In this document: positions 1,040 through 27,150 of the stretch, one piece after another
How positions within the stretch are numbered: position 1 is the stretch's first letter
How the letters are laid out: each line of letters opens with the position of its first letter
Notes under the pieces: generated by a model
The model's input: only the letters and a program-made list of their open reading frames with translations
Databases searched by the model: none
What the model was told of the DNA's origin: nothing
Position numbers and translations under genes: made by a program
Assembly: GCA_000091205.1 (NCBI GenBank)
Contig: AP006488.2
Source: Cyanidioschyzon merolae
Taxonomy: Eukaryota
Reading direction: 5' to 3' (one strand)
Length of the DNA stretch: 64,000 nt

Positions 1040-2100
1040 GTAACCTCAAGCGCTCGAACACCTACAGGTTCCTATACTCTTTCAACTCAAGTACGTATCA
1101 TCCTTGAAGTGTCGTATACCACGAGATCAAAATCTCAACGCAATATACCGCACAGATCCAGGACGCATTGCCTCTAGTATATGTTCTTTACTGAACGGTG
1201 CAACGAGGACTGCACTTCTCTTTCTGGTCAGTCGTACCGCAGTACTCAGACCGTGGAAGAACGCTGGAAGAAAGAAGTATATGCGCTCCCCGCAAAAAAA
1301 CTGTCATTGTCAAAGCGTGAACGCGGCCAATTGTGGAAAACAACCTGTTGATTACATTACGGAAAGCAAAAGCGACGATGGTAGCCACCACGGAGTCCCT
1401 GTTTCTCAAGAGCTTGTTCCCGTGATCCTAAAAAAACTGGGGTGCAGTCGCCTAGAAGAGCCCTCATTCATGCACGGCTACATTGCATCGAAATCGCAAC
1501 GACAGCGTTCCTCGAACGCCGCGAACGGTATGAAGAACAGGTACGTTGGTTGGTTTTTTCAGTTGATGGGACTTTCTTCGGATGAAACGGCAAGAGCATA
1601 TGCGGGTATGCGCGGAGCAGGGAGCTCGTTATATTTACGATCAATCTCGAAGAGAGCGACGACGACGTCGACATCTGCTCTAGCTGCACTGAATTCATTT
1701 GGCGACCTCAGTTTCGCTCCTAGAGAAAGCTCATACAACAGCACCAATCACTTTGTCGAATCATTGAAGACTTTTCCTTCGCGTCTGGCCACGGCCTTCT
1801 CTTCAACAACGTGGTATTCAACCATTCTTCTTGCGTACAACCGTTTGATGAAGCTATCGGAGAAGAATTGAATTTCGTTCATCTGTGCTCTCCGTGGTTC
1901 GACAGTTTCTTAGGAGTGTTTTCTATCGTGGAAGGTAATGCTCTTCCACTGGAAGAATCGCAGAAGCGTTCAGCTCACAGTGACACACCCGGGCACATTT
2001 CGTCTTTCGGCCGCAAGTCCTTCTTCTTCAGGGAAGCTCCGCAACTAAAGACACCAATAGGTGCGTTCATTTGAAGAAATAAAAAGTCCAAGGGATGAGC
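1040..2100 (+). repeat. Dispersed repeat family R2, copy 1 (~1 kb, non-coding; boundaries approximate)
   Basis: By eye it aligns block-by-block with ~18590-19660 and ~25540-26640. Shared islands include gatggtagccaccacgg, tcaccagcttgttcg..ggtcctg, agtcgcc.aaaagagtcctaattc, gagaacgacgacat, ttctagctgcactgtattcatt, gctcatacaacagcaccaa and ccgcaagtcc.tct.cttc.ggg. The ORFs across it (1104..1871 and others) are not conserved between copies. Confidence 0.6.
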
Positions 2101-2533
2101 TTGCGAGGGAGGGGGGCGGGAACACACCAGAAGGTCGAGAAGGAGAAAAGACAGCCGAGCGCCTCTGCGATAGAAAAGCATGGACTGCTGGCAGAGCCGC
2201 AAATGGGACGGATGGCACGAGTTCGAGGACTATTTGCATTGATGAACTCAGCTAGCGGCAAGAAATGCATGGAGTTTCTGAACCGAGTCTTCAGCGCCGC
2301 CATCATGATCAGGAGATGTGCGTTGCTGGAGATGATACGCGCAGCTGACGCGAAGCAACTCTATCGGGCAATGTCCCAGGTTCGAGGTACGCTGGAATAG
2401 ACTGAAACCGCTAGCAGGGGCTGGCAATTTTTACTGGAAAGCGTCTGTGAGCAGATAGTCATTTAACCTATCGTCGCGAAACTTTTCCGCTCTACTGACT
2501 TGACTTCGTGGCACACACGCGCAGCGTACTAGG

Positions 2534-3583
2534 ATGAGGTGCGAAACGCGAGCTGTCGTTACTGGACTCTTTGTGTACCCCATAAAGTCGTGTCGAGGTA
2601 TCGCCATAGAGCAGAGCGCGCTCAGTCTTACGGGTTTGGCTTACGATAGGCTCTACGTCATCGGTCGCCCCGGGGTAGAGGACGGAGGCCGTACGGCGCG
2701 CTTCGTGTCTCAAAGACAAGAGCCGCAGCTATGCCAGCTTGTTCCCGAGCTCGACCTCGAGAGCAGCACCTTGAGGGTGCGCTCGAAGGTAAGACCCGAG
2801 CTGGAGCCGCTGGAGCTGCCATTGGAGGTGTCCAAGGAACGCACCGCCGACACTCAAGTGCGCATCTGGAGCGACATCGTACCCGCAATCGACTTTGGCG
2901 GTGAAGACTGGTTCGCTGCTGCGCTGGACGATCAACTGTCGTATCCAGTTCATATCTACCGAATGCCGGCGACGTTCGAGCGGACTGTTGACCCGGAGCG
3001 GGCGTTCCTGTCGCCGTCATTCGACAGCGTGGTGGGCTTTGCCGACGCGTTTCCCGTATTGCTAACCTCGATGCAGTCGCTTGCGGAGTTAAACCGACGA
3101 ATAGCTTCTCAGTCTGGGGTGGCCCACCAAGTGCCCATGAGTCGCTTCAGACCAAATATTGTCATTGACGCGCTGCCGCTCAATGAGGAACGAGTCTCAG
3201 CAGTGCAGCGCAGGTCTCTGGAGCCCTTCGAGGAGGACACCTGGAAACGAATCCAAATCGGAGAGCAGGTCACGCTTCTAGTCGCGAAGCCTTGCAGTCG
3301 TTGCCGAATCACGACGACAGATCAGGATACCGGCCGGGTAGATGATGCATTTCGGGAGCCGCTGCGCACCCTAGAAACTTTTCGCAAACAACCCCTTGGG
3401 CTGATATTTGGTCAGAATTTGGCACCGGAATACCCACGGCGATCTGGACAGCTTCTTCGTGTCGGTGATGTAGTGCAGGTGCTCGAGTGGCAGACCAACG
3501 ATTCTTCACCGTGGTGGTGGCAGCGGCTCTATCGCGGTTTCTGGGGACGTGCGTCCCGCCCTGAGCGTCCAACGGCGTCGTAG
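2534..3583 (+). CDS. MOSC-domain protein (mARC-like; MOSC_N beta-barrel plus MOSC domain)
   Basis: A 349-aa uninterrupted ORF. The N-terminus LFVYPIKSCRG is typical of the MOSC_N beta-barrel. The conserved cysteine context KPCSRCRITTTDQDTG matches the MOSC domain of mARC/MOCOS C-terminus proteins. Confidence 0.8.
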   Translation: MRCETRAVVTGLFVYPIKSCRGIAIEQSALSLTGLAYDRLYVIGRPGVEDGGRTARFVSQRQEPQLCQLVPELDLESSTLRVRSKVRPELEPLELPLEVSKERTADTQVRIWSDIVPAIDFGGEDWFAAALDDQLSYPVHIYRMPATFERTVDPERAFLSPSFDSVVGFADAFPVLLTSMQSLAELNRRIASQSGVAHQVPMSRFRPNIVIDALPLNEERVSAVQRRSLEPFEEDTWKRIQIGEQVTLLVAKPCSRCRITTTDQDTGRVDDAFREPLRTLETFRKQPLGLIFGQNLAPEYPRRSGQLLRVGDVVQVLEWQTNDSSPWWWQRLYRGFWGRASRPERPTAS

Positions 3584-5581
3584 CGAAGGAGCGCGCGACT
3601 GCTGCCTCACAGAGCAGGGACTCGCGGACACCAAAACCAGCTTGAACGTGGCATGCCGTTGATCTGGACAGGTTATGAACGCTCGTGACACCCATCTGGG
3701 CACCATGGTTGTGCAACCTGTACCGGACACGGTTCATTTTGCGCTGCAAGCGACCTGTATGCATTCGGGCGGAGGCGATCCTGCCCGATACGCAAGTCCA
3801 AAGCGTGTCCGCAGCAGCGCTCGGCCCGTGGTGCACACCACGTCGCATACGCTGCGCACTGGATTCACGATACATAGTCTGGCAACGCAGTCAGCAGTGT
3901 AGGCGTCGCATGGGCTGCGCACTGAGGTCACGTCAGTAACATGGGATAGGCTCCGGTTGCACAGGAGACGCATGATCCCCAGCGCAAGCTGCAGTATCCT
4001 CGCCGTCGATGCGGATCATCGCGCGCATACAGGCCTCCATGTGAGCAACTTTGTCAACAGCAATCCCTGGACAAACACACCACAACAGTTCGGCAGCGGT
4101 ACGCAGCGGGACGGGGTATGAAACACCCTCATTCTTGTCCAGAATCGATGCTCGCGGCAGGGAGCGTACATCCACGTGCTGCAGTTCGATAGCGCGCGGC
4201 GTGTGACAAACCCACTGATGCACTCGTCGGCGACGCACAACGCTATTGCTTCGACTGGTGTGAACGCCGTACCGCGCTCGTTGCGTCAAGCGTGAAGCCT
4301 GCACCGTGTCCTCAGGGACCTGTTCCCCGAACCGGGCAACCGCAAGCGTAACCGATGCGCAACGTCCGCAACGCTACGTTGCCCAGCACGGTGTCATATA
4401 CCGAAAGCCGAGTGCATGGTATCGGGATTCGCAGTTTGCACGAACTGAAAAGCGAACGTAAACGTCAGTTTTATGCAGTCATTCACTTCATGTTTTCAGC
4501 GACTGAGTTCATCCCAAATGGTTTATCTCTACGCCTGCACAGAAACGCCACCAAACACTCGCCCTAGCCTGCAAGGCACTGTTGCGATCGCCATCACTAT
4601 GAGATGAGCGAAATGGCCTCCAAACGCATACCGTGGCACGCGCACAGCACGCTTTCGCTGCACCGATATGGATTTCGTTGCTAGCACTCTGTGGCATCCT
4701 GGAATTTGTGTTGATCGCCTCAAAAGCGAACCAAAGCAAGAGATGTGCTGGAAACCTTGGCAAGGGTTCCGCGTACCGACCAGAGCAGTCTGGCGGGAAG
4801 CTCCCGACGATCTGCCGGCAATGTAGGCACTCGATTTTACATCATGCTCGAAGACTCGCTTTTTATCCTGCAGGTGCACGTAGATGTGCGACAAGCGCAT
4901 GAACAGTAGCTGAAACCGCAATTGCCTCACCAGGAAACCTAATAAATTCACAATGCGTCAATGCACAAGCACTCAACTACACATACCATCAGTCTACTAT
5001 CGTACGTTGCATCCATCAAACAAGGCGTCCTCTGAGCGCGCACATGCCCTGGTACCCAAGGCCAGCACGTCCACCCGATCGTTCGATATCCATGCGCATC
5101 CATCCAGGTTGCGTGTCCTTCTAGTGCGTGCCCGCGCTCGCATACGCAACTGCAGCACACGCAGCTGGGAAAAGAATGCCCCCGCGCATGATCATCGCCA
5201 TCATGATCTGTATGCTTGCACAGTCGTATGCGCAGACGCAGCAGCATCACGAAGTCCTATATGGCATACATGAACCCTAAATGATTAAGATCTCTACATC
5301 GCCGGCGATTGATGCGCGCGGCCTCACGTCGACGACGGGCGATGCGATCGCAGGCGAGCGCGTCTGGCCTCCGTCGATGCTCGACGGAAGGCGCCGCAGC
5401 GAGCACGCACACAACGAGCCGCAGCGAATTGCGCAGCGCCTTGGACGATCCCGTAGACACTTGGCGTGTTGGTGTCGATATCCCCAAACGCGCGATAGGC
5501 CTACCGCTCGAGGGCGTGGTCCGTGTCTGTGTGTGTCGAGGTAATTTGTTTCAACATTCCTTACTTAAATTGAAGCGCAAA

Positions 5582-6916
5582 ATGGTGCTGGGCTTTAACG
5601 TTGCTGGAGCTGTGCGAACAACAGCGGTGCGGGAGCGGCCACCGGTCTGCGGTGTAGGGGCTCAGAGCTCGCGCTTTCGCGGTGACACTATGGTAAGCGT
5701 GGCGAGGACTCGCGCGTTTCTCGCGGTGCCGCCTTTGCGCAGTACACGCTTGCCCAAACCAACACGACAGACATGGCTGCACATGCAAACGTCGACGATG
5801 CAGAAAGCGCGCTATGCGGAGAAAGCACCGCGAGGCGTCCACAAAGAAGCTGCCGTCGGTGCTGTCAAGTCGGAGGCGCTTCAGCGCAAAAACATTCAGC
5901 GTCCAGTGATGGTCGGCGTTGCGGCTGACTCTGGGGCGGGCAAGTCTACCTTCTTGCGCCGTGTGATGCGCATGTTCGGCTCCGATATACCCAAAGGTCA
6001 TACGCCGCAGGGTGAGCTTATCACGGTTATCTGCTTGGATGATTGGCATAATCGCGATCGCCAGGGCCGCAAAGAGGATAACATCACGGCTTTGGATGAA
6101 AACTGCCAGAATTTTGACCTGATGGCAGAGCAGCTTGAGGCGCTCAAGAATGGATTCGATATCATGAAGCCTATCTACAACCATGAGACCGGGCGGATCG
6201 ATCCACCCGAGCTCGTTTCTCCGAACCACATCGTGGTTGTCGAGGGTCTACACCCCATGTACGATGAACGAGTGCGCAAACTGCTGGATTTCTCGGTATA
6301 CCTCGACCTGGATGATGAAGTGAAAATCGCGTGGAAGATCCAGCGTGATATGGCAGAGCGTGGCCACACACTGGAGGCCATCCTTGCATCTATAGAGGCC
6401 CGCAAACCCGATTTTGAACGGTTTATCTTGCCGCAACGACAGTATGCGGATGCCGTCATCCAAGTGAAGCCAACCGAGCTCATACCAGAGGACAAAGAAC
6501 GGAAGATTCTGAAAGTTCGCCTCTTGCAACGCGAAGGCGTGCAAGGTTTCAAGACCGCCTACCTCTTTGATGAAGGATCGACGATCGAATGGATCCCATG
6601 CGGACGACGTCTGACCTGCTCCTACCCTGGCATCAAGTTCCACTACGGCCCCGAGAGCTTTTACGGTGCAGACTTTTCGACCATTGAGGTGGACGGCGAG
6701 TTTGCCAAGCTCGAGGAGCTCGTCTACATTGAGTCACATCTGTCAAACACCGGTACCAAATACTATGGTGAGCTCACCCAGCTCATGCTGGCAGCGCAGA
6801 ACACGCCCGGAGCCTACAACGGAACAGCATTATTCCAGACGATCATCGCTTTGAAGATTCGTGAGATCTACGAACAATTAACTGGTCGCAAGGTGGACCC
6901 CGTGGTGCGATCGTGA
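5582..6916 (+). CDS. PRK: Phosphoribulokinase (Calvin-cycle PRK), probably with an N-terminal plastid-targeting extension. The ORF is open from 5309; alternative starts are at 5582 and 5690.
   Basis: The P-loop VMVGVAADSGAGKSTFLRR is followed by near-collinear identity to plant/algal PRK: ITVICLDDWH, KPIYNHETGRIDPPEL, VVEGLHPMYDERVRKLLDFSVYLDLDDEVKIAWKIQRDMAERGHTLEAI, ARKPDFERFILPQRQYADAVIQV, YLFDEGSTIEWIPCGRRLTCSYPGIKF, ESHLSNTGTKYYGE, GTALFQTIIALKIREIYEQL. Confidence 0.9.
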   Translation: MVLGFNVAGAVRTTAVRERPPVCGVGAQSSRFRGDTMVSVARTRAFLAVPPLRSTRLPKPTRQTWLHMQTSTMQKARYAEKAPRGVHKEAAVGAVKSEALQRKNIQRPVMVGVAADSGAGKSTFLRRVMRMFGSDIPKGHTPQGELITVICLDDWHNRDRQGRKEDNITALDENCQNFDLMAEQLEALKNGFDIMKPIYNHETGRIDPPELVSPNHIVVVEGLHPMYDERVRKLLDFSVYLDLDDEVKIAWKIQRDMAERGHTLEAILASIEARKPDFERFILPQRQYADAVIQVKPTELIPEDKERKILKVRLLQREGVQGFKTAYLFDEGSTIEWIPCGRRLTCSYPGIKFHYGPESFYGADFSTIEVDGEFAKLEELVYIESHLSNTGTKYYGELTQLMLAAQNTPGAYNGTALFQTIIALKIREIYEQLTGRKVDPVVRS

Positions 6917-7830
6917 CCATCCTGAACCGAAACGTTGCTCGTTTCGACATTTAGCTCACGTGAGTGCGCTCTATCACGGCAAAGGTAAAGTTGGTTCGGA
7001 ACGACGTTCGTTTCCTCCCGTACTGAGACTTGATTTCGTTGCGGAACACGGCAGTGATACCGTGTTCCCTGAGGACGCGCAGCCATTTTCGCAGGTACTA
7101 TGGCTGTGCGCCGGGCGTCTCAAAAGCACTGCAGACGATCTGTGCAGAGGCTGGCGCTTCCTTTCAGCGGCTGCTATGCACTCAACCTGTGCGATGGAAA
7201 CCTGCTGTACAGCCTCGAGTCGTGCTCCAGGGCGAGAACGCAACTAGACACGCGTCCAAGGTTCGCTTACGCTCGAAAGCATCATCGACTCAAATCTGGA
7301 AGTTGAAGCGAGCGTTTGGGGCCAAACGCAGCCTTGTTCTTCTATAAAAGTGTCACACCAGTAGGAATAAGCAGTCGTGAGAAGATGCATCGCGCAGCGA
7401 GACTGTGTCGCATCAATCGTTATGCGAGGTCCACGAACTCGCTGCCTCGTTTGGAGTCTCCCTTAACCGTTTCCAGTGCAAAAAAGGTATCGTTGCAGTC
7501 GATGAACTTCAGGATAAGCAGCTAGAGCGCTAGGGGACCTCTCGTAACCGATTCGTAACGACGTCACTCGTTTCCGGCGCGACAAGCCACCGTTGCTGCG
7601 TATGGACAGAAGCAACTGCTGCTGCAGGCGCAGAGCTACAGAACAGTTCGAAGCAGGATCACCTGCACTTGGACGTCCTGAGAAACAAGCTGTAGTCTCG
7701 CTGTGAACACTAGGGAGACCGCCAGTTTTGCAGGGCGATCGCACTGCAGATACCAAGCACCAGACACACCGTTAGCTCGACAGCCTGCAACCGACCTTTA
7801 GAATACTCTTCAGAGGCACTAGGCCGTCTC

Positions 7831-9945: not shown

Positions 9946-10804
9946 CACGAGTGTCGGGCAACCAAGAAATACCCATATGTTCATGTTTTTCCCAAAAGCT
10001 GTGTGCAGGCAGGAAACGTTACGAGCACTGCGTTTGTCGCAAAACAGCGAACGGCGACACCGAGCCACCCTTCGGTATGCTCTGATCGATCCAGGCTGTG
10101 TCGCCTTCTTCTGCCACGACGATGGGGTCGGAGGTATCTAGAACTAGATATCCGTGAGTTCAGTGTATTCAGCAAAGCTGGGAGCGCACCTGCTTCCCCA
10201 ACCATCATGGGACGCTCATAAGGACACCAGCCACGGCTACAGCACAGGGCCAAGCTACTGGACTACTCTACCAGCAGATGCAGCGGTAGAGCTGACGGAC
10301 TCTGGCGCGCGCTGTCCGGGTGTACACTCATATGCAACACAAAACCCTGGTAGCCACTGGTGGATCCATTAATCGTATCCTTATTCACGACCCCGAGACG
10401 TGTTTGGAGTTCGTGAAACGCAAAAGCCGCTGTATACTGGAGCGATGGACTTCAGGATTTGGCCACCAGCATCAGTGGCGAACCTATGTGGATATGAATT
10501 GCTGTATTCATTCCACATCTTAAAGAGCTTTCTAACCATCGCCGCACACTGGAACAGTGGCTTGGCCGGGAAATACCTCTGCTTTTTCGCCTTTGTGATC
10601 AGTTTGTGGCGGCGGTAGCAGTGGCTGCGAATCCAGCGTCTGAGGCATGTTTGTTCGTGCAGGGTCGCTAGAGCAATCCAGCCTCTACCCCCTATGAGAG
10701 CGCTTCTCTAGGACTAGAGAAAATACCTCATATTCAGGGCGGAGGCGTGGTCTATTTCCGGGTTGTAGGCAAAAGCAGTGGATCCGGAGTAACCCAGCCC
10801 GAGA

Positions 10805-10950
10805 CATCGATTCGCTGATAATCATAACAGCGTTTCTCTGGGATCCAATATCGTTTAAATGAAGCAGGGATCATCGATTCGCTGATAATCATAATAGCGT
10901 TTCTATGGGATGCAATTTCGTTTAAATCAAGCAGGGATCATCGATTCCAC
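10805..10950. repeat. Tandem repeat: 67-bp unit x ~2.2 copies (minisatellite-like), intergenic
   Basis: The unit catcgattcgctgataatcataacagcgtttctctgggatccaatatcgtttaaatgaagcagggat starts at 10805. The second unit is at 10872 with ~6 mismatches. A partial third unit at 10939 diverges after catcgattc. Confidence 0.85.
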
Positions 10951-12761: not shown

Positions 12762-15700
12762 GGTAAACGGAGATCACCAGACGAATCTTAGGCTGAAGAC
12801 GCCTCGCACTGGGTGCGCACGCGCGCGCTCCTCTGGATGTCTGGATTGTCCAGTCCTTCTTGTTTCTCCCGTGATCTCGGTTTGCGTGGCCCCTGGCCCT
12901 CTGATGTGTCGTGTAGCTCTATTGGTATACTTGTCCAGCTTTTGGGACAATCAAAAGATTCGGTTTCTTTGTCATCTGATCCACACCAGACCTTGAAAGT
13001 TTTATCTGTGACTGTTTTCTTTTGTTATCTTACATTTGGGGTTTCAAATTTGCCGATTTCTCCTGTTACTCCAGCACCATTGTCATCCGTGGAACGATAT
13101 TGGGAGCATTTTGCAAGTACCGATTTCACAGCTTCTTGCCACTTTCTCCGGATTTATTGCATAGACGGAAGTTGCGATCTACGCCTCGCTCACCATTATC
13201 ATATTCGATGTATACAGGCTCGATACGCGGTTGGTAGGCGTGAGATTTGGCTCTGGTCAGCAGCACCCATATATCCAGAACATTGCCTGCTTCAATCGCC
13301 GTCCTGTGGCAGGTGAATGCTTGCTTCCTCGCTCGGTGAAAATCCTCTACGGGCGCAGAGGGCTCTCCTCGATGTGCTCCTCCATTTTCGCGTCCGACGC
13401 CGTATTCTATGATCGCGAGCATCTTTTGGACGCCCCCTCGGTAAGTGCTCTGTCCGCTGCACACGTGATTGCACATTGTTCAACTCGATATTCTAGCATC
13501 CGATTCCGTGCACGCTCCTCGTTTTTCTACGTACCCTTCTTAAAAAGCTGACCCATACAGGCAACGGGCATCGATATAACTTAGCCATATGCGAGAATCT
13601 TGTCCACAATTTCCAACCGCTTGCGGCGATGCGGCGTAGGCTCCAGAGACTCACTTTTGCTTCGCTCGCTAGTTTGCCAGACCGTTCCTTCACTCGTGCC
13701 CGTCCGCTGGGACGATTATGACAGGCGCGGAGTTGAGCTTCACGACCGCACATGAAAGTCGGAGTGATCGAAAGTTACTCCACCAAAGCGTTGGCCGTTT
13801 CCATAGGGATGTCGGCCAGCTATTTGAGTCTCACGGAAGCGCAAATCTAGACGCACGTAGTCCTTCGTTCGAGGCCGATGTAGACCGCATTTTGGTGAAT
13901 CTGTGCGAGACCATGCGTGTGCGAATCTCACCGCTCGTCCGAGTGTTTCGTATTCTGATCCTTCTTGCGTTTCTAGCCCTCATAAGAGTTTGATATCTGT
14001 GGGAACTTCGAGTTGTTGACGAACGATTCCCACTTGCAATTGACTTCGACGGAGCACAGTTCGCCACCTGGCTGTTGCGCAAACCTCTAGTTCGCCCATT
14101 TATTCTCCGCATATGCATCTTTCTTTGTCTTATGTCGCTCCTTGTTTGTCTCCTAGTTCATGCATACCTTCGATTCTTCGGGCAAAAATGCATACTTAGC
14201 TTCATGAACTCGATATCATCGAGCAGTCCTTCCTCTTCTTCGACGCTCTTGTTCTGCATTTGATGCAAATTTCGTACCTCAGCGTGAATGCCAACCCAGA
14301 ACGAATCGAAAAAGACGCGCAGTGAAGCGCTTGTCAGAGCGATCTAGAGGCGCGTTTGCAAAAGTCTATTATACTCTTCCAATGGAAAACTGGAAAAGCA
14401 CTCCAAATGCAGAACCATCATCGCTTTTGTGGGCGGGATATCCCCCGGCAGCAGATCCGTCTTGTCCCTCACATCTTCGTCTTCCATGGACATTCAACGG
14501 AGATGTGTCGCGCTATCTACATCCTCCGCGCCGACGGGCTTCGACGAAGCTCCTGCCATGAGGAGCTCTCTCATGCCGTTGCACCTTGTGATCGAGTCAT
14601 CGCCCGCTGGTCTCTACGTCATAGAATCCTTTGTCCGCCTGTGTCGCTGCGCGCTGAAACACCTCAGGATTGGCATGAGAACTTTCACATCATGGTGCAC
14701 CTTTGCGCCATCGAAGTCGTTTTGATTCACAAATCAAGAGCGGCCTTTGACATCGCAAAGACGCTCAGCAGGGAAACGAAATGCGTGCGGGGTTGGTGAC
14801 GGAAGGAAGCGAATGACGTGCATTCGGTATGTGCTCGGGTAGACTGAGGACAAGAAAAGCCGTCGGTTTCTGTAGCACCTCTAATAAGTCCTCCATTTTG
14901 ACATGGGCTCCGACACACCCGAAGAACAAGGTCATGAGCGTGAAGTACGTACGTTCCGGGAGTATGCTCTGAAGAAGCACTTGTTCTATGACGTTGTCAA
15001 CATGTTTCGGCTACGGCAAATACGTTCCGGGATGTACCTTAACGACCGCTGCGTTGTGGTGTAGCGATGAGCGCGTCTCCTCGTCCGACAGAACACCCAA
15101 GCTATGAGCGTCGGTTAACTGGGTATTACATCCAAGCGTGACGAGTTTTGCTGGGGACGGTATCTACCTCCGTGCCAAACACTCTAGGATTTCTTGAATG
15201 CTCTCACAGAATCATTATCCTAAAATGCCGGGTGCGCTCAGAATGTGCATGCTACTTGATGGATAGAGTGTCTCTACTTACGCTTTACGGATTGTCCATC
15301 TCTGTTTCTCATGCATAATCGTAATTCAGCAATCCACAAACGTTAGGGAATATTGTCAAACAAGCGTCAACGATCCCAAGGGCCGCGGTCGCCGCAACAA
15401 AAGAGTCGAGCACCAGTCCATTTCGAGGAGGATCCAAGCTCTCGAACAAGCATTTGCCTTTCTGAATCTGCGCATAGTAGCCCGAAAACGTTTTCAGTCT
15501 GGTCGAACCATGAAGAATACGTTGGGGCGCATAAGTTGGTCCATCTCCTATTCTTTGCTCTTTTCCAAATGGAAGATGATTTATAGAAAGCAATTTTGTT
15601 TCTGATGATACAAGTACTGGAAGAAAAATCCGTATCGTAGATGTCCAGGAATTTCGAACTCTCGATGCTTTTTTGATGCAAAGCTATGGTGCAGTTTCCA

Positions 15701-16572
15701 TTGGACACGATTTCCGCGATGGCTCAATTCCAAGACACTGTTCCGTGCTAACAGAAAACAAAGAAGGCTCTGGGAGCGTATCCAGTGAGAGGTTTCCTGC
15801 CGCCTTTAAATGCAGTTTTCTCGATGGCTACATACTGAAAAGGATTTGTCATTCGAATGGAGTCGGGTATTTCAAGCGATACCTTCAGAGTACGTTCGGC
15901 ATGAGCCAGTCAAGGAGTCTTTATATATCGACGTCAAATGCTTCCCTTCTTCCACCTCGCGTCACGAACTGCTGCATTCACGAGTTGCTGTTCAATGAAA
16001 AGATCAAAACATGGGTAATACGCAATTTGAGCATGCTACTCGTAAGGAATAGAGAATCATAGACGCCTGTGCGTATGCATTTGATCATCATTTGGGTTAT
16101 TTGACGAACCTTTGTTCAACGGCGCCACGATGCATCTTAAAGGCGGCGACTTGCTGAATTCTAGCGGCGAAGATTCAATGGAGCCGTTCCGAACATATGA
16201 CCAATAATCCCAGAGCTAGGTATGCATCCGTATGCCATAATTGCTGTATCTTGAATGTCTAAGCTGTGCAAATAACAAAAGTTGGGAATAAACGAAATGC
16301 AGGAACAGAGCGAGCGCTTTACGATTCCACAGTCAACTGACACGGGTGTGGAGGCGTGCTCGCGGTTCCGCCATCGCGTCCGTCTGCTGGAACCCGAACC
16401 CTAAATCCATCGGTTTATCGAGCTCCGTCACGATCACTTTTATCATCAGCTCATTTTCCATAACGATTTCCTTGAGACCATATGCTTCGCACCCTTGCAG
16501 TGTTGCAGCAGAACTATGTGGTCTTCCGTTCATTGATGAGAAGACGCCCCGCAGCGGATAACAGATGAAGCG

Positions 16573-18116: not shown

Positions 18117-18589
18117 TCCCAGGTTACAGCTCAGGACGCGGAAATGGTAAAGAGCTTCCAGGGGAGCCTTCTGTACCCATAGCGGGCATGTAGCGAGTGA
18201 CGACGCAAGCTTTCACGTGTCACAGCGCGACCTTTGGAAGAGTAGGCTCGAGGAGGAATCGGATACCTGAGCATAGCCGAGTGTCATCGCTGCGAAGGGT
18301 GCACCGAGGCCGAATAGGAAGAAAATGATTATGGTACACGAGGCGAAGATCGCAACTTCTTCAAGTGCATGAGCTGCAATGACAACAGTCGGTAGCGGTC
18401 TCATCGTGGCGTATGCGCAACAATAGAAATCCTTCGACTGCTGGCAAAGGAGCTGGAGAAACAAAATTAACTGGCTACTGAAAATGGGAAATGAGAAACG
18501 CAAAGGAAGCAGTCGCGGTAAAAGTTCGCAGCCGCTCTTGTTGAAGACACTGGGAAGAAACCAAAACTTTCACGGGGACTCCTGTTTTG

Positions 18590-19660
18590 GCTAGGAGCAA
18601 CCTTTACATTTTATTCTGACCCGGTTGCAGAATATTATGGTCCTCAAATCAATCCTGTCCCACCCTGGCAGCGCTCTATAGCCTGAGATCTGAATCACTA
18701 TGCAATGCACCGTACATATGAATGGCGTATTGCTACTAGGATATCTATTCGTTCCTGAACAGTTCAAAGAGGACCGCATTCCTCCTTTAGGCTAGGTATA
18801 TCACAGTACTCAGATAGCCGACGAAGACGTAAGGGAGGAAGTAAACGCGCCCTGCGAAAAAAGCCGATACTCCCAAACACTCCTTGCCCGTTCATTGCAG
18901 AGAACGACCCGTTGATTAGTTTAAGGAAAGCAAAAGCCACAATAGTAGTCATCGCGGGTGTCTCTGTTCATCACCAGCTTGTTCGTATGGTCCTGGAAAG
19001 ACTTGGATACAGTCGCAAAAAAAAGAGTTCTAATTCGCCCAGGGGCATCTTTCAGGGAAATCGCAACCAAAGCGTAGCTAGGGAGTCACGATCCGCATGA
19101 AGACCAGGTACGTCGGATTTTTTCAGTCGATGAGACTTGCTTTTGATGAAACGGTCGGAAAGTATATGGGTATTCGTGGAGCGGGGAGCCCGTTGTACGT
19201 AAGGTTGAGCTGGTAGAGAACGACGACATTATCACCTGTTCTAGCTGCACTGTATTCATTCGGTCGCCTCAGTTTCAAACATAATTGAGGCTCAAACAAT
19301 AGCAACAACAGATTCGTCGAGTCACTAAACACTTTTCCCTAACGTCTGGCGACATCGCTCTATGGAACGGAGTTGTGTTGCATCGTTCCCCTTGTGTTTG
19401 AGCTTTTTGCCGAATCTATTGGGGTGGAGCTGATTGTCATTCCTCCTTTCTCATCGTAGCTCTACCCGATCGAACGAGTGTTTTAAGCCGCGAGACGTAA
19501 TGATCGCTCTACAGGGTGAATCGCTGAAGCTTTCAGCACGGTGACGAGTCGGGTCACTTGTCAACTTTCTTCCGCAAGTCCCTCTCCTTCCGGGCAGGTC
19601 CTCTTCGAAGGTCATAGAGAAAAGCGTTCACTTGAAGAAACATAAAATTCAAGGTAAAGT
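18590..19660 (+). repeat. Dispersed repeat family R2, copy 2 (boundaries approximate)
   Basis: Collinear with copy 1 through the blocks gagatctgaat, agtactcagat, aaagcaaaagcc, tcaccagcttgttcgtatggtcctgg, cagtcgcaaaaaaaagagttctaattc, ttttttcagtcgatgagacttgcttttgatgaaacggtcgg, gagaacgacgacattatcacctgttctagctgcactgtattcattcggtcgcctcagtttc, ccgcaagtccctctccttccggg, gcgttcacttgaagaaacataaaattcaagg. Confidence 0.6.
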
Positions 19661-20363
19661 TTTTGACTTGAAAGTCGAGGTTCCTGGAGGCGCGTTTTCG
19701 CTGGTTTCGACACAAAACGGAACAAATCCTCTTCTCCCCGACCACCACGCAAAGAAGATCAAGTGAAGAAGAGGAAGAATGGAGGAGATGGGCGGAAAAA
19801 GATGTTTGCCCTTCAGAGCAATGAGGAGACGAGTGATACAGAGGTCATGATTTTTAGCAACTTTGTATTGATGAGTTCACCCAGCGGCTCTGCACGCATG
19901 AGGTTCGTGAATCGAGACTTCAATGCCTCCAGGCAATATCGGACGCCTTGTGGAGCTGAAGACGAGACCCCCAGAGCTGACGTGAGCGAACGTTGTGGCG
20001 ATCTCTGGTGCTCGAAGCGTAGAAGGTGAAGCTGAAGCCGATACCAACTGGCCGATCGAAAAAGTCTAAGAGGCGTCTGCGAGTGGATATGCATTTACCC
20101 TGCACGGCCGTAAGGCATTATTTGTTTCAATAACATTTGTATCACGACCAAGGTAACAGAACTTTCGCTCAGTACCGACGAAAATCGATCCTCAAAACGC
20201 AGCCCAAACAACACACCCCTGGTCAAGCTCAAAATCTTGCGGACTGTGGCACAGTCGCCTTTAATCCTGAAAGTTCTTTGGTACCGCGGCGGCAGATGCA
20301 GGGTCGGCAACATCCGTTGCACACGAAGGTGTTGCTCATTCACGAAAAGGTCTTGCATTGCTT

Positions 20364-23300
20364 CTATGACTCTGCTTCTGCCTGATGTCGGCTAACACTA
20401 CTACCTAGAGCAGCAAGTGTGGTTCGAGCGGCATTGGAAGCTATATGGACTGCAAGATCCGGACCGTAGTGATATTCTAACGACCAATCATCCAGCGGAT
20501 CTGCTGGGAATACAAGCTCTTGATCACGTACCACGCGAAACCCAGCCAGCGCCGGATCGGGAAAAATGCCGCTCTGTGCAGGAGGCTTCCTCTCCGAATC
20601 TAAGCCTCCGATACCTGCGAACATGTTCAGTTGAGCAGCCTTATTCGTGAACGAACCACCGGGCGACGTTCCCGTAGACAGCGGTATACCGAGCTGCATC
20701 GGTGAACCAGGCTGGAGCCCAGACAATCTCGCGGCAAACGCCGACGGCACGCTTCCGGTTGTGAGCCCGATGTTGGACGAGCGTGAGGGTATTCGCGGTG
20801 GTAACGAGTCCGAGTAGCCTTCGGATTCGGCAGATGATACCGGCGGTGGTCGACTGAGTCGCCCGCCATCCGAAGCTTGACTCAAAGCGCGCTGCTCTCG
20901 CATGATCGCCTCAGCAAGCACTTCGTTGATCATCTGCAGCTCGCGTCGCTCAGAAAGATACCGCCCTCTGCGAATTTCAGGAGACGTTGATGTCGGAGCA
21001 ACAAACGCTACACTCCGCCGTGGATTCCAAGCGACCACTGGTGCTGGATGGGGCCACAACGGATGATAACCGGTCCGCAGCCACTCGACGCCACATTCGA
21101 ACCCGATTTCATACAAGGCTCGAATTTGCTCTTCGCTCAAATATCCCGCATATTCATAGTCCGTTAGCGTCGAGTCTTCCCTCAGTATATCGTGAATGGA
21201 CTTCATACCTTCGAGGAATGAGTGCAGCTCCCTTGCAAGACAAATTTTGGACCAGCAATCTAAGCGAAATCGCTGCAAAATATCCCTCAGTTTTTCAGAC
21301 CTGCGATCTCGAGCAGAAAGCAGCGCAGCACCGCATATCTCAATGCGGATCCGCGTGTCGAGACCGAGTTTCGGCAACGCACAGGTCCATGTCTCTCGGA
21401 AGGCATCATACGAAGTCTCGTATCCTTCAACAATCTCCCTGTACCCATGGCCGTCATCCACAGAGACGCGAATGTTTGCAGCCTCCCCACGTTGAGCCAG
21501 AGCATTCAGATCCACTACACCAACGAAATGGATCGTGAACTGCCGCATCGGGCTCCAGATGCTCCGCGCGGGATCCTGTCCGGCGTCTGGACCGACCGCG
21601 TCACTCCATATCTGTACGGTGAGTGTCTCACAGGCCGCCTTCCTGGACCCTGGATTCGAGTCGACAACTTGAAAATCTGTGCTAAAGCAGGTTACACGTG
21701 CGCATCGCAAAGGATCATCGCCGCCGCTGCCGTCGTCCTCAATCATCTGGAAGGTGTGTTCGCCTCCCGCTACAACCGTCACATCGAACATTTCGGGATT
21801 TTCCAGTCCAGCATCCGCGTCAAAATTCTGATCATCCATCAGGGCCGCAAAATCGTTCGCTATGCCGCTTCGACATCCCGGGGAGGATGCGAGAGGAACG
21901 ATCGCACCGGATGCTGCGAACACAGGCACATCGTCGACTCCGCCATAGACGCATATCCAGCGATTGCCAGCGTATGCCTCACCGGATGGCAAGTGGCGCC
22001 AAGTTCCCGGTGGTAGCCACAGGACGCGGCGAGCGCACCCCACAGAGGGCAGGATCGGTTCGAGGAAAGGCGCCACCAGCAGCTCATCCCCGAAAAAGTA
22101 CTGCGTACAGCACGCAGTGTACGCGAGCGGATTCTGCGTCGGATACTGGTAATACAATGGACGGCAAAGTGGGGTGCTTTTGAGCGAGGCCTTGACGCAC
22201 TGCGAGTATATATAGGGGATGAGGCGATGGCGGTAACGCAGCGCTGCCGTCGCCGCCACAGCATACGTTTTCTCGTAAGACCACGGCCAGCGTCGTATGA
22301 ATTCTGACTTGTGGCCATGGAGGCGAAGAATCGGTGAATATACGCCCAGCTGGACCCAGCGAACGTAAAGCTCGCCATCCGGCTGAACACCTCCCATAAA
22401 CCCGCCTATATCATGAGACCAGAAGAAGAACCCCACATTCGCTGCTGTTGCAGTGATCACTGGTTGCACCGCTAGTGATTCCCAGGTGCTGTGCGTATCA
22501 CCGGAGAATCCCACCGGGTAACGATGGTTCCCGAGACCTCCGTATCGAGAAAGGATCAGTGCTCGGGGCTCAGCACGCCCAAATTCTCGTGCAGAGTCCA
22601 GGCAGTGCAGATGATTCAGGTATATGAGCGGGTCCAGGCCAGCGACGCCTGACTGCGTTCCTTGCTGCCAATCGATCCACCAAAAATCCACGCCTATTCG
22701 TTCATGTGGATTATGCAGGAACTCAAAGTAGGCCTTCATGAAAGATGGCGAGGCGACGTTCAGGTACAGCGGTGTTCCACTGGAAGCATCGACGCCGAGC
22801 GCAGTGGCCATTGCCGTATACATTGATTCATGAGCATGGACTCCATCAGCGGGGTGAACATTTAACCCGATCCGAACACCCAATTGTTTCAGGGCCCTGA
22901 GTGCCTCGAGCGGGTCTGGGAACAGCTCTGGATTCCAAGTGTAACCGGTCCAACCGGGCAAGTGCCAATCCATATCCAGTATGCACACGGACAGTGGAAT
23001 GTTTCGACCATTTTTCCATTCATTGACCCACTGGATAATCTCCGATTGGGAGTAAGGCCACCAGCGAGACCACCAGTTGCCGAGAGCATATCGCGGCAGG
23101 AGTGGAACTTTTCCTGCGATGCTGGTGAACGTCTGCAGTGCACGGGAGTACTGGTCGCCATACGCAAATACATAGAGATCCACTGATCTCGGATCTCGCG
23201 CTCGCTCACAGATCCAGCCATGAGCATCGAAGATAGGTGATGTCGAGTCGTCAACAATCGCCCAACCTCGTCTCGAAATGATGCCGTTCCCAAGATCGAC

Positions 23301-24212
23301 ATACCTGCCAAAGTGGTACTCCCGTTGGGAGCGCTTATCGTACGCCCACCCGTTTGCCCCATCCAGTGTCCGGCATGTACCGCCACAGTTACCAATGCTG
23401 GGATCGGAGATTCCGAAGACAAACTCAAATGGATTCACCTCACCAACGGGCTGCGTTATCCAACCAGCAAGGTTGAAATCGCTTTGCAGGCCCGCAATCG
23501 GACCAATGTCATTGAGGATGATCCGCAGGGCTCCATTCTCGAAAGCACCATGAGACTTCGCGGGATCGTATAACAGCGTGAAGACTTTGGTTCTGATCAG
23601 GAGCAGGCCATCTTGCCTTCGACGAACGCTCATTTCAAACTCCTGCCCAAGATCGCGCCGCCAAAACCTCATCGTCGGGCGATCCTCGAAGCGATTGTGC
23701 GGCGGATTGAGCGGTACACACTCGCAACGCACTGCATATTCGTTTAAAACTGTAAATCGAGCTTGAAATTCGCTGATCCGATTCGGATCAATCCACTTCC
23801 CACTGACGATCCTCTCTTTCGGAGCCAGGGGCGAGCCCCAGCGCGCGAGGCAGAGTGCGGAGCTCGAAGAAGGCTGCAGCAAGTGCAGCGGCACACTCAA
23901 TAGCCCTGCTGCCTCCGCAGTTTCATTACAGGGGGCAACCGCGAAAGCCGCTGTTCCCGTACTAGCTCTAGCTGGTTCATCGGCGGCAGCGTTTGGGAGC
24001 GAGCTCACAGCGGGCAGTCCCAAGATACCCCGACGCCTACGATGCGATCGTTGAGAGAGCGCACCCAGGGAGCCCGTCAAACCAGCAGGGCTTAAAGGAG
24101 GCGTTGACTGCTGTCTTGGGGTGTCTCCATAACTTCCAATATTGTAGCTGTACCTACAATCCTCTTTAGAGATTTTGGAGTCACCGTTCAAACCCTGTTC
24201 CGAGGAAAACAT
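20364..24212 (-). CDS. Glycoside hydrolase family 31 (alpha-glucosidase/alpha-xylosidase-like) with long Ser/Pro-rich, low-complexity N- and C-terminal regions
   Basis: A 1282-aa uninterrupted ORF. GH31 catalytic core signatures: GVDFWWIDWQQG (WiDmNE-type nucleophile region) and FFWSHDIGGFMGG (acid/base region), plus the GNHRYPVGFSGDTHSTWESL context. The start codon may be internal to the ORF. Confidence 0.8.
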   Translation of the reverse strand: MFSSEQGLNGDSKISKEDCRYSYNIGSYGDTPRQQSTPPLSPAGLTGSLGALSQRSHRRRRGILGLPAVSSLPNAAADEPARASTGTAAFAVAPCNETAEAAGLLSVPLHLLQPSSSSALCLARWGSPLAPKERIVSGKWIDPNRISEFQARFTVLNEYAVRCECVPLNPPHNRFEDRPTMRFWRRDLGQEFEMSVRRRQDGLLLIRTKVFTLLYDPAKSHGAFENGALRIILNDIGPIAGLQSDFNLAGWITQPVGEVNPFEFVFGISDPSIGNCGGTCRTLDGANGWAYDKRSQREYHFGRYVDLGNGIISRRGWAIVDDSTSPIFDAHGWICERARDPRSVDLYVFAYGDQYSRALQTFTSIAGKVPLLPRYALGNWWSRWWPYSQSEIIQWVNEWKNGRNIPLSVCILDMDWHLPGWTGYTWNPELFPDPLEALRALKQLGVRIGLNVHPADGVHAHESMYTAMATALGVDASSGTPLYLNVASPSFMKAYFEFLHNPHERIGVDFWWIDWQQGTQSGVAGLDPLIYLNHLHCLDSAREFGRAEPRALILSRYGGLGNHRYPVGFSGDTHSTWESLAVQPVITATAANVGFFFWSHDIGGFMGGVQPDGELYVRWVQLGVYSPILRLHGHKSEFIRRWPWSYEKTYAVAATAALRYRHRLIPYIYSQCVKASLKSTPLCRPLYYQYPTQNPLAYTACCTQYFFGDELLVAPFLEPILPSVGCARRVLWLPPGTWRHLPSGEAYAGNRWICVYGGVDDVPVFAASGAIVPLASSPGCRSGIANDFAALMDDQNFDADAGLENPEMFDVTVVAGGEHTFQMIEDDGSGGDDPLRCARVTCFSTDFQVVDSNPGSRKAACETLTVQIWSDAVGPDAGQDPARSIWSPMRQFTIHFVGVVDLNALAQRGEAANIRVSVDDGHGYREIVEGYETSYDAFRETWTCALPKLGLDTRIRIEICGAALLSARDRRSEKLRDILQRFRLDCWSKICLARELHSFLEGMKSIHDILREDSTLTDYEYAGYLSEEQIRALYEIGFECGVEWLRTGYHPLWPHPAPVVAWNPRRSVAFVAPTSTSPEIRRGRYLSERRELQMINEVLAEAIMREQRALSQASDGGRLSRPPPVSSAESEGYSDSLPPRIPSRSSNIGLTTGSVPSAFAARLSGLQPGSPMQLGIPLSTGTSPGGSFTNKAAQLNMFAGIGGLDSERKPPAQSGIFPDPALAGFRVVRDQELVFPADPLDDWSLEYHYGPDLAVHIASNAARTTLAALGSSVSRHQAEAES

Positions 24213-24326
24213 GATGCAACGAAAGTGGCTAAGCGCATTGACGTCGACTGCGAACAGGCGCAGTGGAACATCTTCGATTCCTTAGAGCTGCTCCTCTTTG
24301 CTGGGGCGCTGCGAAGGGGTTACACG

Positions 24327-24824
24327 ACAATGCTGCTGCATCTGAGATGCTTGTGGCAAGCAGCATCTCGTGTACCGGAGCAGAAAGTCTCCGCGGCCAG
24401 TTTCAAACGGTTGCTGTCCACAGGAAGTTTTGCTAAAGAGTCTGCTGCATCGGGGACTGAAACCATGCGAGGCGCCGGAGGCTTCTCTCTTTCAGTCACA
24501 GAAGAGTGCGTGAGGCGATTGAGGGAACTTGCCACGCGTGCACCGAAGCACTTGCCTTTTGCGCTGCGGGTTACAGTCAACAGCGGGGGCTGTGCAGGTT
24601 TCCAGTACGAGTTTAAGCTTGAACACAGTGGACCCGCAGCGGAGGACGTTGTTTTCGAGAAAGACGGCGTTCGCGTTTATGTGGACGCGATCAGTGCTCC
24701 GTTGCTTTCTGGCGCAACAATCGACTATGAAGATGAGCTCATACGGTCAGCATTCAAGGTAGAGGGGAATCCTAACGCCGAAGCAAACTGCAGCTGCGGA
24801 ACAAGCTTTGCGCCCCGTTTTTAA
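24327..24824 (+). CDS. ISCA: Iron-sulfur cluster assembly protein, IscA/HesB family (A-type carrier). Likely mitochondrial or plastid. The ORF is open from 24225.
   Basis: FALRVTVNSGGCAGFQYEFKLE ... VRVYVDAISAPLLSGATIDYEDELIRSAFKVEGNPNAEANCSCGTSFA gives the three cysteine ligands in the canonical C-x-many-C-x-C-G-x-SF arrangement. Confidence 0.85.
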   Translation, partial: TMLLHLRCLWQAASRVPEQKVSAASFKRLLSTGSFAKESAASGTETMRGAGGFSLSVTEECVRRLRELATRAPKHLPFALRVTVNSGGCAGFQYEFKLEHSGPAAEDVVFEKDGVRVYVDAISAPLLSGATIDYEDELIRSAFKVEGNPNAEANCSCGTSFAPRF

Positions 24825-25539
24825 CGTGTTTCAGGAAAATATCGTTCGAAACAATCGAGTCGCTGAACTTCCATGCGACGTGGCATGAGCCGTCTTCATA
24901 GTCGCTGTACGTATCCCGCGTGTCGGCTATTGAAGTCTTCAGCTCTACATGGATGTTGCGACGCAGCTGCTTTGGCTTATGGCAATGGGGTCCCTTCAAT
25001 CGTCGAAGTTGTCGTCAACCAAATCGCTCTGACCCACAACCAGCTTCTTTCCGATTGCAAATTATGCGCTGAGACAGCATAGAGTCTTAGAAGAACTCTT
25101 GATAAGCATATTCAATTTCGACGAAAGGGCTGAGCGCCTGCGTTGGCCATCAAGCGCTGAGGTCAACAAGGCTGGGTACCATTGAGGCACCTGACAGATT
25201 CACTCGCACGGGCTTTTTGCTATCCTTGCTTTCAAAAGGAAGACTTTTAGAAGGGTCCACACGTTGATCCAGTAGAACTAGGACTCGCATTCGTCTGTTG
25301 GAGGAGAACACCTACAAGCAAGGAAAGCCCTCCAGTCTGCGTAGTTCCCTGTTCTGCTTTGCAGGCCCATTTTGTATGCTGTTGTAAATTTGTCCATAAT
25401 ACCATGGAACCATGCTTGCGCATATACAGAAAGCTAATGAAGCTGGCGCATAGCACCTTTGCTCCACATTAGTACTGTTCAGGGGTCGCAGCATTTGCTA
25501 TGACGTAGCGGCGTCGCTCAAGCGCGTTCGCCTGCAATC

Positions 25540-26640
25540 GGAGCCACTGCAACGCTGCAGACATCGCTGCAACATGGATAAGGGCGCTCGGCGAAGCTCA
25601 TAGCGTCTTTCAACTCAATCCGGTAACACCCGGCAGCGGTTTATAGCAAGAGATCTAAATGTCTGTGAAGTGTACCGTACAGATCACAAACGATTTGCCT
25701 GTGAGACATATTCTTCCGGAAAAGTGCATGGAGGACTGCATTGCTCGTTCAGGTCCGTCATACCAGAGTACTCAGATGGTAGAGGAACACTGAAAGAAAC
25801 AAAGATATACATGCTGTGCCAAAAACCGATGTCCTCAAAGACTGCTTGCGGTCCATGGTAGAAAGCGACCGGTCGATCAACTTACGGTTAGCAGCTGCCA
25901 CGATGGTAGCCACCACGGGAGTCGATGCTTCTCACCAGCTTGTTCGTGTGGTCCTGAAAACACTGGGGTGCAGTCGCCGAAAAGAGTCCTAATTCACGCA
26001 CGACTATCTTCGATTGAAAACGCAACGACACCGTTCTGAAAACTTAGCGATCAGCACGAAGCACATGGACGTCGATTTGTTCTTTCAGTTAATGAGAATT
26101 GCTTCCGACGAGACTGTCGCTGCCTATGTGAGTTTTCGCGGAGAGTGAGCCCATTGCATGTACGATCGAGCTCGTGGAGAACGACGACATGTTCATCTTT
26201 TCTAGCTGCAGTATATTCATTTTGCGGCCTCGGTTTCGCTCACAGAGGAGGCTCATACAACAGCACCAACCAGTTCGTCAAATCGTTGGAGAAAGTTCTC
26301 TAACGTCTCGCGACGACCCTCCACCGGAAATTGTGATGTCTCAGCATCCTTCCTGCATTCGAGCCTTTGCCGATGCTATCGGGTAGAGCTGCCCGTTTAA
26401 AATGGTATCGCACCAGAAACAGGGTCTCGTCTCCAGCACCGCACATGGTCTGGTATTCAAAGCAGCGTTAAACTCGCGGCCTACAAACTGCTTGCATGCA
26501 TTGACGTTATTGGAATGCATCAATGCGAGGATTCCTCGAACTCCTGCCCTCCGTGCCACCAGTGTGTCGTTATAGTTCCCTCGGGCATATACTTTTCTCG
26601 TCTACCTCCTTCTTCTTCAGCTTTTTCGTCACTTCCTCTT
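25540..26640 (+). repeat. Dispersed repeat family R2, copy 3 (boundaries approximate)
   Basis: Collinear with copies 1 and 2: caagagatctaaatg, agagtactcagatggtag, gatggtagccaccacgggagtc, tcaccagcttgttcgtgtggtcctgaaaacactggggtgcagtcgccgaaaagagtcctaattc, gagaacgacgacatgttcatcttttctagctgcagtatattcatt, gctcatacaacagcaccaaccagttcgtcaaatcgttggagaa, cctccttcttcttcag. Confidence 0.55.
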
Positions 26641-26939
26641 CATCGCTCGATGGTCGGCGAGAGGAGGTTTTTTCGTTCTTTCCCAGCAACCGACGATGAC
26701 AGGCCTCCTGGATCCTCGAATTCCATGTTCATTCCTATCCGGCGGATTTTATATTTCTTCAAAATGAACGCACTTCGTTATGCTCATAGGCAAGGACCTG
26801 CCCAGACGGAGACGGACTTGCGAAGAAAGACAAAATGTCCTCCCATGTCGCCGGGTGCTGAACGCTTCAGCGATTCACACAGTAGAGCGATCATAATTTA
26901 TCTCGATAGAAAACACTCCTTCGATGCGGTTCAAACACG

Positions 26940-27150
26940 AAGCGTACGGAGGAATGAAATACACTTCAACCCTCCGAGAGATTCTGCAAAAGCTCGAACG
27001 CAAGGGTAAAAGTGGAACACCATGTTGTCCACTGGAGGAACGTCGAAAGACGTCGGGTGAATGTCTTCAACGATTCGTTTTAGAGGGTGTTGTTGTTCTA
27101 TGAGCCTTCTCTTCGAGTGAAACTCAGGCCGCCATGTGAATCTCAACTGT
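26940..27150 (-). repeat. R2 repeat fragment in inverted orientation relative to copy 3
   Basis: The reverse complement of 26940-27150 (ggcctgagtttcactcgaagagaaggctcatagaacaacaacaccctctaaaacgaatcgttgaagac...ccttgcgttcgagcttttgcagaatc) aligns to copy-3 positions ~26222-26390 (ggcctcggtttcgctcacagaggaggctcatacaacagcaccaaccagttcgtcaaatcgttggagaa...ccttcctgcattcgagcctttgccgatgc). Confidence 0.55.

Follow-up and report, generated by a model that had tools for sequence, protein, structure and literature searches.

Within the window, the 64,000-nucleotide stretch of Cyanidioschyzon merolae DNA analysed here (contig AP006488.2), lie the copies of a dispersed repeat family, R2, all of them intergenic and situated between annotated-type genes. 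The R2 unit is ~1.4–1.5 kb long and is found as four copies with a transposase part (c1–c4) and as one copy that holds the 3′ part only (c5). Its 5′ ~1 kb is the frameshifted pseudogene of an IS630/Tc1-mariner transposase (DDE_3, DD34E), and its 3′ ~350–450 bp is the remainder of a Fanzor1 gene of the CMe-1 lineage, internally deleted such that the first ~10–55 codons are joined to the last 95–125. Fanzor1 proteins are eukaryotic TnpB-like RNA-guided nucleases. We think it highly probable that the R2 copies are old and dead cut-and-paste transposons of the IS630/Tc1-mariner type that once carried Fanzor1 as a passenger. In window coordinates, the copies and their parts are as follows:

1080–2498, + strand: c1, a full unit of deletion class A; its left end begins TTTCAACTCAAG and its right end finishes ...CCGCTCTACTGA
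~1143–2047, + strand: transposase pseudogene of c1, with several frameshifts
2122–2419, + strand: Fanzor stub of c1, equivalent to CMe-1 residues 616–716
18642–20134, + strand: c2, a full unit of deletion class B
~18704–19600, + strand: transposase pseudogene of c2
19638–19704, + strand: Fanzor leader and first codons of c2
19823–20085, + strand: Fanzor C-terminal piece of c2, equivalent to CMe-1 residues ~640–728
25608 to ~26386, + strand: c3, 3′-truncated and consisting of the transposase pseudogene alone (~25669–26288)
27545–26389, − strand: c4, an inverted copy of deletion class B, its 3′ end truncated at the junction with c3
27467–26848, − strand: transposase pseudogene of c4, with an internal deletion of ~220 bp
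26732–26609 and 26580–26422, − strand: Fanzor pieces of c4, equivalent to residues 1–38 and 636–689
~34501–33943, − strand: c5, 5′-truncated and without the transposase part, sharing the class B junction
34501–34360 and 34246–34018, − strand: Fanzor leader/N-terminus and C-terminal piece of c5, plus the right end
15475–15837, − strand: a relic of the same type of transposase, more diverged than the copies (E = 2e-7 to 1e-3 in tblastn, the queries being P0001, P0002 and P0003)

Alignment of the window against itself with BLASTN found the R2 loci collinear and significantly similar, at 67–72% identity and with E-values from 1e-101 to 1e-81: 1078–1799 matched 25606–26321 at 71.9% identity (E = 1e-101), 1115–2093 matched 18677–19654 at 67.5% (E = 1e-81), 18644–19432 matched 25610–26391 at 69.8% and, in inverted orientation, 1693–2089 matched 27141–26744 at 69.1%. 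An earlier note on this DNA had seen such similarity by eye among the loci ~1040–2100, ~18590–19660 and ~25540–26640, and in this it was right, as it was in describing an old dispersed family of transposable elements whose copies are all intergenic. The extents needed more revision. The third locus does contain a copy, but c3 does not extend to 26640: it stops at ~26386 and meets c4 there in a tail-to-tail junction with the 3′ end of c4 (~26386–26389); c4 is indeed inverted but, instead of a fragment at 26940–27150, it is a nearly complete copy. The unit had been taken to be ~1 kb long, whereas full copies run ~350–450 bp further in the 3′ direction, and the count of four loci missed the partial copy c5 and the relic at 15475–15837. 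Aligned to the intact relatives (P0001 74–197, P0002 192–274), the relic covers the stretch of the transposase that opens shortly ahead of the first catalytic Asp and closes shortly after the catalytic Glu. It also overlaps an open reading frame (ORF) at 15367..15708.

Searched one frame at a time, raw translations of the R2 copies gave a single weak match in Pfam, to DDE_3 (E = 0.024), and the identification of the transposase therefore needed a consensus and independent proteins. When the copies are translated in their frames, a helix-turn-helix region and the motifs 'SVDETCF', 'LAAL..G...GSYNS', 'LLDNVVFHH' and 'PP.S.W...IEGVFS' follow one another collinearly, though frame-shifted. With the frame-stitched consensus, the score was 41.9 bits for Pfam DDE_3 (E = 1.2e-10; cutoff 28.6), in an alignment over profile positions 4–133 of 146, and 60.7 bits for NCBIfam IS630 (E = 1.6e-16); the latter is under the curated cutoff of 100 bits, which the intact relatives P0002, P0003 and the ORF of L013 exceed with 115–134 bits. 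The database relatives P0001–P0003 carry DDE_3 and are 36–41% identical to the R2 consensus, and P0005, with a weak HTH_Tnp_Tc3_2 match, is 56% identical to it over approximately one-third of the consensus. Used as tblastn queries, these four proteins matched all of c1–c4 in collinear order and with changing frames, a result that does not depend on hand stitching because the queries are independent proteins. The D, D, E triad is readable in the consensus, in 'SVDETCF', 'LLDNVVFHH' and, after 34 residues, 'RIEGVFS', and P0002 shows the same DD34E spacing. P0002 also matches the published transposase of PUl-1, a Mariner element carrying Fanzor (E = 8e-21), and the PUl-1 transposase in turn matches the R2 consensus (E = 4e-6); a sequence search of the PDB with P0002 matched no Tc1/mariner structure.

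The likeness thus extends to both bacterial IS630 and eukaryotic Tc1-mariner transposases, with relatives above the NCBIfam IS630 cutoff, Pfam matches to DDE_3 and HTH_Tnp_Tc3_2, the DD34E spacing and a 'PPYSPxxNPIE' motif; R2 differs in that its host is eukaryotic and a Fanzor passenger is aboard. Coding capacity has been lost. The catalytic triad is broken in individual copies of the window, for example, by a change from DN to NN in c1, and the 255-amino-acid ORF of c1 (1104..1871) is partly in the transposase frame, its catalytic residues gone. An intact transposase ORF was found in none of the 13 copies examined.

The identity of the 3′ module was reached by a longer route. The module alone matched nothing in Pfam and its profile matched nothing in the PDB, the partial ORF2 of L010 had no match in either, and the link to Fanzor emerged only via a profile of the full-length family. 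A search with the motif 'FVNRDFNAAxNI' led to ~57 short, unannotated metagenome ORFs, some of them extending upstream through 'VDEFRTS', and on the contigs of intact relatives a long ORF lies downstream of the transposase in the same orientation; full-length homologues of this ORF are 580–750 amino acids in size. A profile of the R2 3′ module matched the C-terminus of P0063 (676 amino acids) with 99.9% probability (E = 6e-34), and a profile of the P0063 family matched solved Fanzor1 structures (9cf0, E = 1.6e-19; 8gkh, E = 2e-7). The annotation of many Fanzor homologues with PF26935 says merely 'DUF8286', and the match of PF07282 to the RuvC-III motif was sub-threshold; the motif itself, 'NRDFNAAxNI', is kept in c2, c4 and c5 and mutated in c1.

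What survives of Fanzor is its two ends. The module maps to positions ~834–975/1070 and ~2751–3084 of the consensus of CMe-1A, a C. merolae repeat family discussed below, and the CMe-1A homology always starts at the same point, ~37 bp upstream of the Fanzor ATG. Two deletion junctions are seen: class A has the first ~10 codons and continues from residue ~607–616 onward, and class B has codons 1–55 and continues from ~640–651 onward. Among the window copies, c1 resumes at CMe-1 residue 616, c4 passes from residue 38 to 636, and c2 and c5 resume at ~640–645. With residues ~56–640 or ~10–606 deleted, the complete RuvC-I, RuvC-II and Zn-ribbon regions are absent from R2, and only positions ~550–596 of the 615 in the Fanzor hidden Markov model (HMM) remain; the R2 copies are, therefore, Fanzor stubs and not Fanzor genes. 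Past the Fanzor stop, the copies continue for only ~30–60 bp. Together, the two modules change how the family should be described. The earlier statement that it has no conserved ORF holds for uninterrupted ORFs, but every copy carries collinear, frameshifted protein homology, and the label 'non-coding' does not fit what are the remains of one gene for an IS630/Tc1-mariner transposase and of another for a Fanzor1 nuclease.

Two smaller observations concern the Fanzor module. A weak RuvC-III-like fragment, 'NR*LNAAINI', lies at 33849–33986 on the + strand (E = 0.26–0.47), tail-to-tail just past the right end of c5; the arrangement may echo the c3/c4 junction, and chance is possible. A TATA-like motif, GGTTTATAGCAGAAG, is found at R2 consensus ~119–131 and at CMe-1A 846–858, that is, ~25–50 nt upstream of the transposase ATG and of the Fanzor ATG, and could be a candidate for a shared core promoter; the 13-nt match alone is not significant (E = 0.17).

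The two genes are also found together in a complete form. In L009, L010 and L012–L015, the transposase is followed directly by Fanzor on one strand, and L012–L015, four metagenome contigs with unrelated flanks, have in common a sharply bounded element of 3.64 kb that is 98–99.8% identical among them and consists of the transposase, Fanzor and a 185-bp tail (e.g., L013 734–4376). Its terminal inverted repeats (TIRs) are imperfect, ~30 bp long ('TATACTC...GGAACACC') and abut TA, and the element appears to have been recently active. The left ends read 'GT TA TACTC' in all four. Closer to the window family, a metagenome scan with the R2 transposase (hereafter the census) returned 22 loci representing ~9 distinct sites, four of the loci being the window's own c1 (99.5% identity). 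In all 22, the transposase is decayed and no more than a C-terminal piece of Fanzor comes after it, of class A or class B; as each of the classes is present at multiple sites, both deleted forms must themselves have been mobile.

The left boundary of R2 is sharp across 12 copies, beginning '...GTG TTTCAACTCAATT', and the right boundary is at '...TTTTCCGCTCCACTGA', roughly at position ~3140 of CMe-1A. The left region (~27500 in c4) also contains an insertion of ~22 nt ('...AATCGAATGCTTTTTC...') that is common to c4, L017, L035 and L025 and missing in c1, c2, c3, L004, L022, L031, L032 and L037. This putative subfamily marker cuts across the Fanzor deletion classes, a hint that copies have recombined with one another.

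The copies are ~70% identical pairwise and ~76–84% identical to their consensus. Differences between copies fall on codon positions 1, 2 and 3 in numbers of 204, 203 and 227 (p = 0.42), and this even spread indicates neutral decay after insertion; the same test led us to reject the alternative in which purifying selection acted on the copies while they diverged as active lineages. The near-identical islands described earlier turned out to be overstated, as the longest stretch identical in three copies is 10 bp and the variation of identity from one alignment window to the next is marginally above shuffled columns (p = 0.02–0.23 by window size). Of the uneven conservation there thus remains a marginal excess over the shuffle, with the substitutions even over codon positions, and islands in the role of functional motifs are at most marginally supported.

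Elements related to R2 have been described. CMe-1A is a C. merolae Fanzor1 family with a 3,169-bp consensus, ~150 copies that are ~80% identical to it, no TIRs and no classification (Bao & Jurka 2013, PMC3627910), and it is probably the same as the '253-copy 3.2-kb interspersed element' of Nozaki et al. 2007 (PMC1955436); with ~150–250 copies and ~5% of the genome, it is the most abundant repeat of C. merolae. The R2 3′ module is 68–75% identical to CMe-1A per copy (~75–76% for the consensus) at ~834–1070 and ~2751–3084, translates to CMe-1 residues 1–55 and ~607–734, and has decayed to a similar degree, to ~80% identity to consensus. On the other hand, the place of the 5′ ~830 bp of CMe-1A (the first 635 bp of which correspond to TE-N2_CMe) is taken in R2 by the transposase pseudogene, R2 is without ~1.7 kb of the Fanzor ORF, CMe-1A is without a transposase remnant, and the 3′ termini of the two part after CMe-1A position ~3140. 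Only ~530 bp of R2 align with the 3,169-bp consensus (68–76% identity), with nothing of the first 830 bp or of the 1.7 kb in the middle, and R2 is thus related to CMe-1A via the Fanzor gene and is no CMe-1A copy.

A parallel in gene content is provided by PUl-1 and PUl-2 of Pythium ultimum, Fanzor1-carrying Mariner/Tc1 elements of 3.6–3.8 kb with 24–33-bp TIRs and a TA target-site duplication (TSD) (PMC3627910); the association of Mariner/Tc1 with Fanzor1c has also been described (PMC10530073). R2 shares with them the order of transposase and then Fanzor1 on one strand, as well as a homologous transposase, and the intact relatives L012–L015 resemble them in size (3.64 kb), in their ~30-bp TIRs and in their TA-compatible ends. 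The window copies, however, have lost the inside of Fanzor and retain just its ends, are fully pseudogenised and have no demonstrable TIRs or TSDs, and the transposase identity is just ~27–28%. R2 is, then, a known kind of element, as Mariner/Tc1 elements with Fanzor1 are already on record (PMC3627910, PMC10530073). Mildly new is the physical linkage of the CMe-1 Fanzor to an IS630/Tc1-type transposase in C. merolae, which is unstated in the literature examined, Repbase and Dfam lying outside the comparison.

How firmly should the copies be read as fossil transposons? With no long intact ORF conserved among the copies and all of them intergenic, they could be taken for a non-coding element, and the earlier note had thought of a short interspersed nuclear element (SINE), a miniature inverted-repeat transposable element (MITE) or a solo long terminal repeat (LTR). 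We regard this as extremely improbable given that collinear homology to the IS630/Tc1 transposase and Fanzor covers nearly the whole unit; moreover, 1.4–1.5 kb exceeds the size of a MITE (for which we used a criterion of under ~800 bp) or a SINE, no tRNA-like sequence or RNA polymerase III head was found in R2, and nothing LTR-like was seen. The note's second proposal, a family of structured non-coding RNA loci, could be made specific as Fanzor guide (omega/fRNA) genes retained for their RNA. Published Fanzor guide RNAs originate in the non-coding sequence 3′ of the gene, next to the right end, and the conserved stretch reaches into the last part of the ORF (PMC10530073); the two independent deletion classes of R2 both keep the Fanzor 3′ region. 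We, therefore, folded the retained 3′ piece of five copies with RNAalifold and, instead of the bonus that compensatory substitutions would give, obtained a covariation term of +1.08, a penalty, together with weak energy, the power being low with five decayed sequences. The Rfam scan gave no hits at the gathering threshold and, at E ≤ 1, no hit inside any R2 copy. Considering also the uniform neutral decay, the shortness of the sequence past the Fanzor stop and the fact that no intact Fanzor of the same lineage is adjacent to use such an RNA, we find such a family of structured RNA loci very unlikely.

Other readings accept the protein homologies and question the unit. A Tc1/IS630-like transposon might repeatedly have inserted beside CMe-1A Fanzor fragments, or been targeted to them, such that two separate elements came to be juxtaposed. 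The modules can occur apart: L004 has consensus positions 90–1136 only, without the Fanzor stub, and c5 is a stub without the transposase; CMe-1A is, in addition, so abundant (PMC3627910; PMC1955436) that chance adjacency is not negligible. Juxtaposition would, however, have to account for c1, c2, c4 and all of the ~9 census sites being alike in order, orientation and spacing (~150–400 bp), for the fixed start of the CMe-1A homology, for the lack of flanking CMe-1A sequence on the 5′ side of the transposase and for intact relatives that hold both genes within one TIR-bounded unit, and we consider it improbable. The presence of four copies within ~27 kb could also bring to mind segmental duplications of host intergenic DNA in place of transposed copies. 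Against this, the flanks are unrelated, the copies occur in both orientations, at ~9 further sites on other contigs and with sharp common boundaries, and their content is a transposase and Fanzor; such an origin is barely conceivable.

The explanation that we favour, dead IS630/Tc1-mariner copies that once carried Fanzor1, has evidence weighing against it too, starting from the separable modules of L004 and c5. Manual joining of the reading frames in the transposase consensus could have raised its Pfam score. TIRs and TA TSDs are not demonstrable for the window family: a search for TIRs within the window copies gave nothing convincing, and the 5′-CAGTG...CACTG-3′ termini are a 5-bp hint only. 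These termini, with TA upstream in some copies (in four of nine it precedes the conserved left block by 5–6 nt), are suggestive only. The R2 left end paired with the CMe-1A right end was tried as TIRs and rejected: only one of the four copies gave p = 0.02, and equally good scores came from 25 of the 411 internal control windows. Finally, the census contained no copy of the R2 lineage in which the transposase is joined to a full-length CMe-1 Fanzor; with no such parent at hand, the ancestral layout has to be drawn from more distant relatives.

On that basis, the ancestral element in the C. merolae lineage would have comprised a TIR, a DD34E transposase of ~300 amino acids, a Fanzor of ~700 amino acids, a short 3′ tail and a second TIR, and its movement by transposition would follow from its family membership. 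In C. merolae, its Fanzor may then have been hit by at least two independent internal deletions, giving rise to classes A and B; both deleted forms would have retained the transposase and both ends, and each would have spread to multiple sites. Most of Fanzor would thus have been lost by internal deletion before the last burst of R2, after which all copies decayed neutrally to their present divergence. The last ~300 bp of Fanzor, kept in both classes, could reflect a need in cis for mobility, as the right end and/or the template of a guide RNA, and the 3′ end of the gene may have been kept on account of an overlap with right-end or guide-RNA sequence that acts in cis. A step further, R2 might preserve the CMe-1 Fanzor lineage in the autonomous form of its ancestor, with CMe-1A descending from a Fanzor-carrying IS630/Tc1-mariner element; two branches would have arisen from that element, CMe-1A with Fanzor alone and R2 with the transposase and a Fanzor stub. 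We offer this last idea tentatively and see it as possible, if rather doubtful.

The window is eukaryotic and intron-poor, encoding TRAPP Trs85, DNA polymerase alpha subunit B, a protein kinase, a GH31 enzyme and a GST, and the proteins neighbouring R2 are identical to the C. merolae 10D entries BAM79486–BAM79492. A separate Fanzor1 pseudogene lies at 47562–49335 on the − strand, nearly full-length (HMM positions 103–585 of 615) and frameshifted. It matches P0063 residues 118–675 (E = 3.7e-37), and its low identity to both CMe-1 (~23–29%) and P0063 (27–44%) marks it as a second Fanzor lineage in the genome. It is a passenger gene of the same kind outside the R2 unit, and no transposase relic was detected beside it. 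The window also contains a young repeat family, at 37531–39631, 54995–57095 and 59721–61108, with two copies of 2.1 kb and one of 1.4 kb that are 99.2–99.6% identical; its ORFs of 267 amino acids (+ strand) and 234–237 amino acids (− strand) have no Pfam hit, and in BLASTN the family is unrelated to R2 and CMe-1A. At 10805–10947, there is a direct duplication of 76 bp with an offset of 67 bp and 93% identity.

Overall, what looked like a non-coding repeat, or possibly a structured RNA, becomes an annotated fossil transposon, which is mostly housekeeping. C. merolae is, however, cited as nearly transposon-free: the genome paper lists eight 'class II transposase-related elements', closest to bacterial transposases and with weak E-values (PMC1955436). 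That description fits decayed IS630-like relics, although the paper assigns them to no family, describes no structure for them and makes no connection with the Fanzor repeat. With five IS630/Tc1-type transposase relics, three of them with a Fanzor stub, in a single 64-kb window, the count of eight looks low; it looks as if the published inventory of transposable elements is incomplete and undercounts, or else the region is a cluster of them. At a dozen sites, the Fanzor ends of CMe-1A are fused to an IS630/Tc1-type transposase and lie 3′ of it; together with the intact transposase–Fanzor relatives in metagenomes, this provides a testable classification for CMe-1A. Lastly, the repeated loss of the Fanzor body while the element went on spreading fits Fanzor being a dispensable passenger for Mariner/Tc1 transposition.

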